Assembly (NCBI GenBank): GCA_016839785.1
Contig: JAEOTQ010000168.1
Location: 6,835-70,834 of the forward strand
Direction: 5' to 3'
Length of the DNA: 64,000 nt
Source of the DNA: Candidatus Hodarchaeota archaeon
GTDB taxonomy: Archaea; Asgardarchaeota; Heimdallarchaeia; Hodarchaeales; Hodarchaeaceae
This document shows, piece by piece, positions 28,130 to 30,073 of this stretch; the stretch's first letter is position 1; every line of letters starts with the position of its first letter. Below the pieces are notes generated by a model, which worked only from the letters and a program-made list of their open reading frames with translations, searched no databases and was not told the origin of the DNA. The position numbers were made by a program, and so were the translations under genes.

Positions 28130-29794
28130 ATGTCTTTAATCTATATGAAAGCTTTGGAGAAAGATCCTCAATCATATGACTTGGAATTCAAAAAGAGGTT
28201 TCCTGAAGCTGAATTTATTTATGATTTAATCAAATCAAGAATTGGTCATAAAGGACGAGTTCTTGAGGTCGGAAGTGGAACTGGTCGATTAGCGATCGCT
28301 ATCGCAAAGCAAGGATTCGAAGTTACAGCTATTGATGTCTCAGATATAATGATCGAACAAGGAAGAAATACTGCGGATCAGGAAAGCATTGGAGTAGAAT
28401 TTATCACTGGAAACTTCATTTCTCTCCCTTTATTCGAACATTTAAAGAATTCTGAGCCTTTCGATTTTATTATCTCTACCTTTGCTCTTTCTGAGTTTTC
28501 TCCGCTCCAACAAACTCTCTTCCTAAAACAAGTCTCTCTCTTATTAAAAGAAGAAGGAAAATGCTTTCTTGCTGTGGATACAGCTCCTAGTTCGGGTATA
28601 CCAAAAATAGTCTTTTCAATTGAGAATTTTATTCGTGCACAGATTTCGATTTTTAAGGATATACCTTCTACAACTCCTGTCAAAAAAATCGAAACAAAAT
28701 TAGCTTCTTATTTTGAAAGTACGCTTCTTTATAAAAAGAAAACAATCAAACTATTTGAAATTACAAAGAAAAGTGATGATAAAACCATAACTAAAGAAAT
28801 TACAAATGTTGAATCAGTACTGGGACAATTCCCTCAATTAAAATCTGCTTATTGCATTATTAATGGAATTTTAACACGAAAGCATGTGCCCCCTGGCTTA
28901 TATAAAATAGGGAATCCTAAAAGAAATTCCCCTGTATTAGTAACAGCAAATTATTATTGGACTGTGAATTCTGTCTACAATACTCTTCACAGAGATGATA
29001 TCGATTGTTTTCTGCTAATTATTGATTCTGATGGGATAAATGTATGGTGTGCTGCTGGAGGAGGGCATTTTACACACACTCAGATATTGGAAGCGATTCA
29101 GCTATTTGATCTCAAAAATTTTATTGATCACACCTCTCTAATATTGCCCCAACTATCAGCTACTGGAGTAGATCGTAAAGTATTGTCCAAATCAGGTTGG
29201 AAACCTATTTTTGGGCCCATTGATATCAAAAATGTGAAATCGTTCCTGCAGACATTTACAAAAAACTCTGAAACCGCAAAAATTGATTTTAAAATACCTT
29301 TCAGAACGCTTATGGGAATACAACACGCGTTCTTTATTAGTTGCGTTATGTTCCTCCCTTTGTTATTAATTCTAGGATTATTAGCTGCTATAAAGATTCC
29401 CCTGACTTTATTTTGGATTTCTGTTGTTATTCAACTTTTAATTCTCGGAGTGATAACCAATATGTTATTTATATGGATATACCCAGTTTTTGACTTCACG
29501 TCCTCATTCTTTAAGAAGGGGCTTTTTGTTGCTATAATTAATTCGATTGTGACCGTTCTTTATCTAATAAGCGAAGTAAAGACCAATTCTCTATATACTA
29601 TCATTTTCTGGGTAGCTCTAGTTACTATGGTGAGCTTGTTCATAGTTCTAGACCTTGCAGGAAACACCCCCTATACAAATCACTTAGATGTCGAAAGTGA
29701 TCTAACTCTGTTTATGGTTCCTGCAATAATCCTTTTTCTTATTGCTGTGCTGATTCCAATAATAAATTCGGAAATTAAACATTTACTGTTTTGA
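28130..29794 (+). CDS. hgcA: HgcA-like corrinoid membrane protein fused to an N-terminal class-I SAM methyltransferase domain
   Basis: Residues ~40-150 carry the MTase motif I VLEVGSGTGRLAIAIAKQG. Residues ~245-390 read GLYKIGNPKRNSPVLVTANYYW...IIDSDGINVWCAAGGGHFT...LILPQLSATGV (HgcA cap-helix region with the Cys). About 5 C-terminal TM helices. Confidence 0.75.
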   Translation: MSLIYMKALEKDPQSYDLEFKKRFPEAEFIYDLIKSRIGHKGRVLEVGSGTGRLAIAIAKQGFEVTAIDVSDIMIEQGRNTADQESIGVEFITGNFISLPLFEHLKNSEPFDFIISTFALSEFSPLQQTLFLKQVSLLLKEEGKCFLAVDTAPSSGIPKIVFSIENFIRAQISIFKDIPSTTPVKKIETKLASYFESTLLYKKKTIKLFEITKKSDDKTITKEITNVESVLGQFPQLKSAYCIINGILTRKHVPPGLYKIGNPKRNSPVLVTANYYWTVNSVYNTLHRDDIDCFLLIIDSDGINVWCAAGGGHFTHTQILEAIQLFDLKNFIDHTSLILPQLSATGVDRKVLSKSGWKPIFGPIDIKNVKSFLQTFTKNSETAKIDFKIPFRTLMGIQHAFFISCVMFLPLLLILGLLAAIKIPLTLFWISVVIQLLILGVITNMLFIWIYPVFDFTSSFFKKGLFVAIINSIVTVLYLISEVKTNSLYTIIFWVALVTMVSLFIVLDLAGNTPYTNHLDVESDLTLFMVPAIILFLIAVLIPIINSEIKHLLF

Positions 29795-29806
29795 AAAGTG
29801 ATGTAG

Positions 29807-30073
29807 ATGGTAGCAGTTATATTTACTGAGAGGTGTAATGGATGTGGTTGGTGTCTAGATGTCTGTCCACATCAAATAATTTCTTTAAATGAGAATAAAA
29901 AGGCAGAAATTTACGATGCTGACCGATGTATAGAATGTGGAGCATGTGCATTGCAATGTCCTAAAGATGCAATTCTTGCTCATCCTCTTGGTTGTGGGTG
30001 TGTATCTAGTGTAGTTCGGAAGAAAATTCGCAAAGTCTTACATATACCTGAAAAATCAACGGAGTGTTGTTAA
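29807..30073 (+). CDS. hgcB: HgcB-like 2x[4Fe-4S] ferredoxin
   Basis: 88 aa. CNGCGWCLDVCP and CIECGACALQCP clusters. Extra Cys pair GCGC and a C-terminal vicinal CC. It lies 12 nt downstream of hgcA. Confidence 0.7.
   Translation: MVAVIFTERCNGCGWCLDVCPHQIISLNENKKAEIYDADRCIECGACALQCPKDAILAHPLGCGCVSSVVRKKIRKVLHIPEKSTECC

Follow-up and report, generated by a model that had tools for sequence, protein, structure and literature searches.

We examined a 64,000-nucleotide stretch of contig JAEOTQ010000168.1 from a Candidatus Hodarchaeota archaeon (hereafter, the window), in which two adjacent forward-strand genes bring together a class-I S-adenosylmethionine (SAM)-dependent methyltransferase domain, a corrinoid-binding and membrane part related to HgcA, and a ferredoxin resembling HgcB. 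The first gene, the CpaM::HgcA-like fusion (28130..29794), is an uninterrupted open reading frame (ORF) of 554 aa, both halves of which match their own families. From the N-terminus, its product comprises a CpaM-type methyltransferase domain (residues 6–215; 28145..28774) with the N-terminal signature MKALEKDPQSYD, motif I VLEVGSGTG (28259-28285) and an invariant Asp69; a partly helical interdomain linker (residues 216–250; 28775..28879); an HgcA-type corrinoid-binding domain (residues 251–380; 28880..29269); and a membrane domain of five transmembrane (TM) helices (residues 389–545; 29294..29764). The corrinoid domain contains the cap-helix region GINVWCAAGGGH (29033..29068), with the codon for Cys307 at 29048-29050 and Gly311 at the position of a Lys in canonical HgcA. 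The second gene, coding for an HgcB-like ferredoxin of 88 aa with two [4Fe-4S] clusters (29807..30073), starts 12 nt past the stop codon of the fusion gene. Two in-frame ATGs lie within 28130-28147 of the fusion gene. The second of these, at 28145, codes for Met6. This residue is invariant in the homologues and opens MKxLExxPxxYD, the signature of the CpaM family, and a length of 549 aa is frequent among the homologues; the real start is therefore probably this ATG, five codons past the listed one (549 rather than 554 aa).

A sequence-only reading of this locus had described a 554-aa ORF with an HgcA-type corrinoid domain, a cap Cys and about five TM helices, and the ORF itself, the Pfam family CdhD and AlphaFold2 all bear this description out. 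CdhD matches residues 235–372 of the fusion through the C-terminal part of its profile (1.4e-17), and the Pfam families Methyltransf_25, 31, 23, 11 and 12 match as well, Methyltransf_25 at residues 44–146 (7.5e-16). The AlphaFold2 model of the fusion as a single chain, built on 33 homologues, has a predicted local distance difference test (pLDDT) score of 86.5 and a predicted template modeling (pTM) score of 0.78. It features a Rossmann domain, a corrinoid-type α/β domain and five long C-terminal helices (389–420, 426–449, 460–483, 488–512 and 518–545), with a further helix in the linker (235–248, pLDDT 71–86). Against the PDB library, the model matches best the HgcA model 9a0b_A deposited by Cooper et al. 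(E 5.5e-12, 322 columns); the membrane region aligns with it, and the AlphaFold2 helices mark out the five TM segments. The Foldseek matches of the N-terminal domain were small-molecule class-I SAM methyltransferases.

The methyltransferase plus corrinoid/TM architecture is common to 33 full-length homologues, ranging from 97% down to 25% identity, whose named sources are Heimdall-, Hod-, Prometh-, Hermod- and Odinarchaeota. When 1.84 billion representatives were searched exhaustively, it turned up in about 30 clusters at 50% identity, so that the survey for such fusions elsewhere, proposed by the sequence-only reading, did find them. They come from independent assemblies of several Asgard phyla and of bacteria, and their NCBI label is just "methyltransferase domain-containing protein". 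The window is wholly syntenic with Heimdallarchaeota archaeon B3_Heim, whose fusion orthologue is 75% identical. The ratios of nonsynonymous to synonymous substitution rates (dN/dS) against this orthologue rise from the methyltransferase domain (0.08) through the corrinoid domain (0.09) and the TM domain (0.11) to the linker (0.22), all approximate values since dS is close to saturation; every domain of the fusion is under purifying selection. Mean identity within the family peaks in the corrinoid domain (58%) and is lowest in the linker (39%). An origin of the fusion by a frameshift or a missed stop is ruled out by the continuous ORF, the recurrent architecture and the purifying selection.

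The best NCBIfam match of residues 2–192 is NF043040, the "corrinoid protein-associated methyltransferase CpaM" (109.8 bits, with the next family at 39 bits). This score is below the curated cut-off of 180 bits; other fusions exceed it, namely P0027 (230 bits), P0035 (250 bits) and the Chloroflexi protein of locus L006 (281 bits), and free-standing CpaMs of 212–216 aa reach 258–299 bits. When 11 free-standing CpaMs were aligned by hhalign with the N-terminal 216 positions of the fusion family, the match ran end to end over 212 columns (probability 100%, E 1.7e-55). The signature MKxLExxPxxYD is invariant in both alignments, as are the SAM-binding residues G48, G50, G52 and D69 across the fusion homologues. 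Given this end-to-end homology, the common signature and the fusions above the cut-off, the N-terminal domain is, by sequence comparison, a diverged CpaM. Pfam, NF043040 and hhalign thus agree with the sequence-only reading in placing a fused class-I SAM methyltransferase domain at the N-terminus. The next-best NCBIfam matches of CpaM include ArsM-type models at 43–68 bits. In neither the fusion nor the free-standing CpaM alignment does the methyltransferase domain have a conserved Cys or His, and CpaM is therefore unlikely to bind a soft metal(loid) itself. We also considered whether a CpaM structure has been solved: the nearest PDB methyltransferases, PH0226 (1ve3) and a Methanosarcina acetivorans protein (6mro), score only 66–68 bits on the CpaM model, no better than generic-family scores, and are hence not members.

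The corrinoid domain is matched at about 1e-10 by the PDB large subunits 4djd_C and 2h9a_A of CFeSP, the corrinoid iron-sulfur protein. The overlap is limited to positions 250–386 of the 387 in the CdhD profile (about 137 positions) and to residues ~320–440 of the PDB CFeSP chains. The fusion lacks the architecture of the CFeSP large subunit (AcsC/CdhE), which has N-terminal [4Fe-4S] and TIM-barrel domains and no cap-helix Cys. We built neighbor-joining (NJ) trees only, one from the corrinoid domain (128 columns) and one from the corrinoid and TM domains (290 columns, 133 taxa, 200 replicates), and in these the HgcA-superfamily ingroup splits from the CFeSP outgroups at 78–100% bootstrap. This split, the cap Cys and the TM domain rule out a CFeSP placement. 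Canonical HgcAs form a clade with 84% support in the corrinoid-only tree and 95% in the larger one, and in both trees this clade leaves out the window fusion along with every methyltransferase- or ferredoxin-fused protein. Profile searches and phylogeny, the check that the sequence-only reading had suggested, therefore assign the corrinoid/TM part to the HgcA superfamily, but not to canonical HgcA. The backbone of the trees has 0–25% bootstrap for the order of canonical HgcA, ferredoxin-fused, Asgard 'GG', Asgard 'RG' and Chloroflexi-type fusions. The group holding the window fusion is supported at 94% as 16 members in the corrinoid-only tree and at 5% as 14 members in the larger tree. In the tree of Lin et al. 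(2023; PMC10083202), Asgard sequences belong to the fused-HgcAB clade; those authors cut the first 327 alignment positions as poorly aligned, without comment on a methyltransferase domain, which would fall in the trimmed part.

NCBIfam scores agree with the exclusion from canonical HgcA: the fusion scores 181.6 bits on the HgcA model NF040863, against a cut-off of 275 and 423–487 bits for true HgcAs. The idea of an HgcA of the characterized type with an unusual add-on, which was how the sequence-only reading had framed the protein, fails on both counts. On the HgcAB-like model NF043039, the fusion scores 212.7 bits over model positions 16–279 (cut-off 285). Choosing between HgcA and HgcAB-like by such a score alone proved uninformative, because canonical HgcAs score the same there (212–218 bits, typically ~213).

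The motif INVWCAAGG occupies residues 303–311 of the fusion (more fully, NVWCAAGGG) and includes Cys307, the presumed lower axial Co ligand; G302, I303, N304, W306, C307 and A309 are invariant among the fusion homologues. Nearly all stand-alone HgcA-type proteins have the Lys of NVWCAAGK, and the fusion has Gly311 in its place. In the exhaustive search, all 66 'GK' representatives were stand-alone HgcA-type proteins, with no methyltransferase- or Fer4-fused representative among them; in the first homologue search, GK was seen in two methyltransferase fusions only, P0027 and P0033. The CAAGGG reported earlier as a departure from characterized HgcA is therefore real but not peculiar to this gene, the G-for-K state being the usual one in the paralogous HgcAB-like lineage. 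Three further features are common to the fusion and the ferredoxin-fused proteins: AAGGGHFT, a two-residue stretch and a GW motif; the latter two are ancestral states, since CFeSP has both too. The fusion resembles the HgcAB-like type in its non-Lys cap motif (WCAAGG) and in having CpaM 5' of the corrinoid domain; it departs from that type in that the dicluster ferredoxin is a separate ORF rather than part of the HgcA polypeptide. The Asgard fusions fall into two lineages: a 'WCAAGG' type, found in the window, Heimdall-, Hod- and Odinarchaeota and some Prometh- and Hermodarchaeota, and a 'WC(A/G)ARG' type from Promethearchaeum and Hermodarchaeota (L003–L005). The latter is a clade with 98% support, and lies nearer canonical HgcA in the tree at a position without support.

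The protein encoded 3' of the fusion was earlier taken for an HgcB-type ferredoxin with a terminal Cys pair, and this was confirmed. It has two CX2CX2CX3C cluster motifs, CNGCGWCLDVCP and CIECGACALQCP, matched by Fer4 families, a GCGC (Cys63/Cys65) past the second cluster, and the terminal Cys87-Cys88. Its top family is NF040864 (HgcB) at 70.9 bits, compared to a cut-off of 99 and 106.9 bits for a true HgcB. Seven aligned Asgard HgcB-like proteins all keep both cluster motifs and the GCGC, and six of the seven keep the C-terminal CC, unlike many of the ferredoxin-fused paralogue tails, which lack these motifs. We take the GCGC to correspond to Cys73 of HgcB from strain ND132. The HgcB-like gene lies directly 3' of the fusion in Heimdall-, Odin-, Prometh- and Hermodarchaeota. 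In canonical HgcB, C73, C94 and C95 appear crucial for mercury methylation (PMC11588087).

A side observation concerns the canonical hgcB of Oceanirhabdus seepicola (NZ_JAGSOJ010000005.1; L010:5098-5290), which has an in-frame TGA just past '...WVRSGVG' and runs on beyond it as 'VIAIVKAKLTGGESL' to a TAG. The TGA sits at a Cys column of the Asgard HgcB alignment, presumably the equivalent of ND132 Cys73, making this gene a candidate selenocysteine HgcB; a report of selenocysteine HgcB by Haft and Gwadz (2023) is cited in PMC11588087.

We next considered how CpaM and HgcA-like domains are linked across genomes, combining a scan of GTDB genomes with our own domain hidden Markov models; the resulting counts of genome loci are lower bounds rather than a census. 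Three arrangements emerged. CpaM::HgcA-like fusions with a separate ferredoxin directly 3' are found in the window, in Prometh- and Hermodarchaeota (L003–L005), in Chloroflexi (L006) and at L083–L085. A free cpaM followed by a ferredoxin-fused hgcA-hgcB is found at L001, L002 and L086 and in at least 15 genome loci from at least 10 bacterial and archaeal phyla; at L001, L002 and L086, cpaM is immediately 5' of the HgcAB-like gene, mostly with overlapping stop and start codons. Triple fusions are represented by P0035 and about nine further representatives. The whole module is also present in Methanococcoides methylutens (cpaM 268.8 bits, HgcAB-like 464 bits, with overlapping genes). That the same three modules are fused in differing ways, a classic Rosetta-stone pattern, argues that CpaM, HgcA-like and HgcB-like proteins work together. 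The reciprocal test used 80 metagenome loci found by a CpaM-specific peptide: an HgcA-like corrinoid domain lies directly 3' of CpaM in 69 of them, or 69 of the 71 informative loci, with 9 of the 80 ending too early to judge and the remaining 2 having just 300–390 nt downstream. The suggestion in the sequence-only reading that the methyltransferase is functionally tied to the corrinoid domain is thus strengthened by fusions in three arrangements and by the near-obligate adjacency of free cpaM.

In distant Heimdall- and Odinarchaeota, conservation is limited to the two-gene unit, and its surroundings differ; bacterial loci have heterogeneous flanks too. Among the Asgard and bacterial loci examined, we found no further conserved partner genes, and beside the module no other conserved methyl-donor enzyme or second methyltransferase. 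None of the four canonical hgcAB loci examined (L010 among them) has a CpaM. A stricter rule that no methyltransferase adjoins canonical hgcA is broken by L088, though the enzyme there is ArsM rather than CpaM: L088:2719-5279 contains an ArsR-type regulator, a true ArsM (275.7 bits against a cut-off of 263), hgcA and hgcB. At another canonical locus, in Anaerocolumna xylanovorans (L087:3583-7370), we observed an ArsR-type regulator, hgcA, hgcB, ArsD, an SBF-family (ACR3-like) transporter and an LMWPc-family (ArsC-like) protein.

Several individual loci of the free-cpaM type have features of their own. A metagenome-assembled genome from Methanofastidiosia (L009:3656-6979) has three class-I methyltransferase genes around its HgcAB-like fusion: cpaM, one of 209 aa between cpaM and the fusion gene, and one of 266 aa on its 3' side. 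Two bacterial loci (L001:4092-7639 and L007:699-3371) share, with each other only, two unannotated ORFs immediately 5' of cpaM (one of 140/141 aa, 43% identical, and one of 158/154 aa, 50% identical), which may be lineage-specific accessory components. At L001, an ArsR-type regulator lies 5' of these ORFs, and a MerC-family gene directly 3' of the HgcAB-like fusion. The M. methylutens-type HgcAB-like fusions (P0268–P0387) are 69–81% identical across named sources that include Methanococcoides, Methanohalophilus, Kosmotoga, KSB1, Aminicenantes and Eubacterium cellulosolvens, implying strong constraint and horizontal spread; several of them are still labeled 'copper oxidase'.

Taken together, these observations point to a self-contained, membrane-anchored, SAM- and corrinoid-dependent methyltransferase formed by the two genes, a domain-rearranged version of the widespread cpaM plus hgcAB-like module; judging from comparative sequence evidence, we would put the chance that this is right at about even. 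Under this model, the corrinoid that Cys307 ligates in the HgcA-like domain would be reduced to Co(I) by the HgcB-like ferredoxin. The fused CpaM domain would then bind SAM and transfer its methyl group to Co(I), yielding CH3-Co(III) and S-adenosylhomocysteine. Finally, the methyl group would pass to a thiophilic acceptor, probably a metal(loid), at the membrane face; the HgcB-like protein might hold that acceptor by its Cys pairs, the GCGC and the C-terminal CC. The model draws support from the Rosetta-stone fusions, the reciprocal linkage (69/71), the end-to-end homology to CpaM, the invariant SAM motifs and the dN/dS of 0.08 in the methyltransferase domain, and also from the lack of a conserved Cys or His in CpaM, the invariant Cys307, N304 and W306, the retention of the HgcB-type cysteines and the lack of any other conserved methyl-donor gene nearby. 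The domain make-up, the homology of the parts, the conservation of the SAM- and Co-ligand residues, the near-obligate link between CpaM and HgcA-like proteins and the exclusion from canonical HgcA are direct observations; what we infer is which way the methyl group flows, that CpaM serves as a SAM:corrinoid loader and the nature of the acceptor, with mercury as a possible but not favored acceptor. Chemical precedent comes from 2024 work in which SAM methylated purified canonical HgcAB in its Co(I) form (PMC11588087). The methyl donor of mercury methylation, still treated as unresolved in the sequence-only reading, is an outdated premise for the same reason. The fallback of that reading, a different methyl-transfer function, is the one that we favor over mercury methylation.

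Some points weigh against this model. The cap region is a low-confidence coil in the AlphaFold2 model (pLDDT ~64), and helix-breaking changes of the cap helix kill activity in canonical HgcA (PMC7305189). On each of the four relevant NCBIfam models, the window proteins stay under the curated cut-off. Chemically, no dedicated loader is needed, because canonical HgcAB takes the methyl group of SAM without a methyltransferase domain (PMC11588087). Our literature search found no biochemical characterization of any CpaM or HgcAB-like protein. The same search returned no paper containing both 'CpaM' and 'corrinoid' and none on a methyltransferase::HgcA fusion, and the SAM-binding site of canonical HgcAB is not defined in the literature found.

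The most obvious competitor to a distinct SAM- and corrinoid-dependent system is a genuine mercury methylase, with Asgard methylmercury being made by an HgcA that has its own SAM-loading domain. The cap-helix Cys, the five TM helices and the adjoining ferredoxin are indeed all there, the Asgard HgcB-like proteins keep the GCGC (7/7) and the C-terminal CC (6/7) unlike many ferredoxin-fused paralogues, the nearest structural match is the HgcA model 9a0b_A, and sediment surveys name Asgardarchaeota as putative methylators (PMC12484752). Yet the fusion lies outside the canonical HgcA clade (95%; 84%), the HgcA and HgcB scores fall short of their cut-offs (181.6 vs 275 and 70.9 vs 99), and the fusion lacks the Lys seen in all 66 'GK' stand-alone representatives. 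Moreover, the fused-hgcAB organisms Pyrococcus furiosus and M. methylutens, the latter with cpaM and a fused hgcAB, made no methylmercury when tested (PMC5893877), and the fused-HgcAB lineage routinely serves as a paralogue outgroup (PMC7438021). We consequently regard mercury methylation as unlikely, though not outlandish. A somewhat poorer prospect, in our estimate, is that the methyltransferase domain is a repair module, which would re-methylate inactive Co(II) with SAM and ferredoxin electrons as in MetH, the routine donor and chemistry being something else, for instance reductive dehalogenation. Methionine synthase reactivation (MetH) uses a SAM-binding activation domain and electrons to re-methylate Co(II). 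The two ingredients that such reductive reactivation needs, a ferredoxin and a SAM-binding domain, are both present, and a 2026 preprint describes halomethane dehalogenation by mercury methylators (10.64898/2026.04.26.720869). Against this, the loci examined have neither a second methyltransferase nor a methyl-donor gene conserved alongside the module, SAM is the catalytic donor in canonical HgcAB (PMC11588087), and CpaM is conserved as tightly as the corrinoid domain.

CpaM might instead methylate the final substrate directly, in the manner of ArsM, leaving another step of the pathway (further methylation, reduction or transport) to the HgcA-like and HgcB-like parts. ArsM-type models are among its next-best matches, ArsR-type regulators occur at several HgcA-family loci and MerC at L001, and a true ArsM is directly 5' of one canonical hgcAB locus, with another such locus in an ars cluster. 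However, CpaM lacks a conserved Cys for binding As(III) or other soft metal(loid)s, the surroundings of the Asgard loci contain no ars or mer genes, and the repeated fusion, always N-terminal to the corrinoid domain, together with the translational coupling, points to a direct partnership; we hold this possibility to be rather improbable, the weakest of the functional alternatives. An assembly or annotation artefact, or a decaying pseudogene, has practically no standing: nothing was found to support it, the sole irregularity being the ambiguous start codon (28130 or 28145), and the continuous ORF, the same architecture in independent assemblies, the purifying selection and the confident single-chain model all oppose it.

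Returning to the favored SAM- and corrinoid-dependent methyltransferase, its logic can be extended to the whole superfamily, although we offer this extension tentatively and consider it doubtful as a package. In this joint reading, CpaM would be the first class-I (Rossmann) SAM methyltransferase acting on a protein-bound Co(I) corrinoid. The partnership with CpaM would be ancestral to the whole HgcA superfamily; the derived canonical clade alone would be without CpaM and would have gained the cap-helix Lys to take the methyl group of SAM unaided. All deep non-canonical lineages are CpaM-linked in this reading. The Asgard two-gene form, which keeps the HgcB-type Cys pairs, would methylate a thiophilic metal(loid) in marine sediments.

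Three other ORFs of the window lie near the unit. An ORF of 437 aa (24393-25706, +) has a hydrophobic N-terminus, a long C-terminal stalk rich in Thr, Ser, Pro and Glu, and a C-terminal hydrophobic anchor, features suggesting that its product is probably a cell-surface protein; at the equivalent position, B3_Heim has a 431-aa gene without a Pfam match. The ORFs at 30150-30686 (+, 178 aa) and 25725-26318 (−) have no Pfam or NCBIfam match, and their conservation among the loci examined extends to the close relative B3_Heim alone (54% and 61% identity, respectively). Both are outside the conserved two-gene unit.

The association of cpaM with HgcAB-like genes is already known at the database level, through two NCBIfam models, and we found no paper describing it. 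The window shows another partition of the same modules, in which CpaM is fused to the HgcA-like part and the separate ferredoxin resembles HgcB in its cysteines; conservation of this form extends across Asgard phyla, and some bacteria have it too. The fact that a relative of HgcA is fused to CpaM, which is normally encoded just upstream, supports the notion that SAM loads the methyl group onto HgcA-like corrinoids. The fusions, together with the thousands of loci in which CpaM is translationally coupled to an HgcA-like gene, thus provide genomic evidence for SAM-to-corrinoid chemistry that is independent of the biochemistry. The correlation of the Lys/Gly state of the cap residue with the absence or presence of CpaM offers a testable contrast. 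There is also a caution for environmental surveys, in which Asgard sequences with the NVWCAAG core can end up counted as putative mercury methylators. The Asgard "hgcA" matches of the fusion type are probably not mercury methylases and instead represent a paralogous system, relatives of which made no methylmercury when tested; the final methyl acceptor of the fusion system is likewise probably not mercury. Given its conservation in several Asgard phyla, the module probably belongs to the ordinary sediment physiology of these archaea.

Among known systems, the closest is the pair of cpaM and HgcAB-like genes (NF043040 and NF043039) of M. methylutens and Kosmotoga pacifica, which has the same three modules, likewise tightly coupled, with CpaM 5' of the corrinoid domain and no Lys in the cap motif. 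There, CpaM is free and HgcA is fused to HgcB, whereas in the window CpaM is fused to the HgcA-like part and the ferredoxin is separate; the window proteins have also diverged to below both curated cut-offs, and the Asgard ferredoxin keeps the GCGC and terminal CC that many fused tails do not. With canonical HgcA and HgcB of Pseudodesulfovibrio mercurii ND132 (NF040863/NF040864), the window pair shares the Cys cap helix, the five TM helices and a separate 3' dicluster ferredoxin with extra Cys. SAM is the demonstrated donor in the canonical proteins and would be the donor in the window pair. The fusion differs from canonical HgcA in its ~245 extra N-terminal residues (the CpaM domain and the linker), in the Gly for Lys after WCAAG and in its position outside the canonical clade, and its CpaM-linked relative M. 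methylutens is negative for mercury methylation. The resemblance to CFeSP (AcsC/AcsD) and its methyltransferase MeTr of the Wood-Ljungdahl pathway lies in the homologous corrinoid domains and in a shared logic, by which the Co(I) corrinoid bound to a protein is loaded by a separate methyltransferase and reactivated by an Fe-S cluster, as we propose for the window pair. In CFeSP, however, the donor is methyl-tetrahydrofolate via the TIM-barrel MeTr rather than SAM via a Rossmann methyltransferase, there is neither a cap-helix Cys nor a TM domain, and the Fe-S cluster is inside the same large subunit. A further chemical precedent is methyl transfer from SAM to cob(I)alamin with an electron donor in the methionine synthase reactivation domain and in the B12-dependent radical SAM methylases, whose SAM-binding folds are unrelated to the class-I Rossmann domain of the window. 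To our knowledge, no class-I methyltransferase has been described to methylate a protein-bound corrinoid, and the CpaM domain of the fusion is a candidate for that role.

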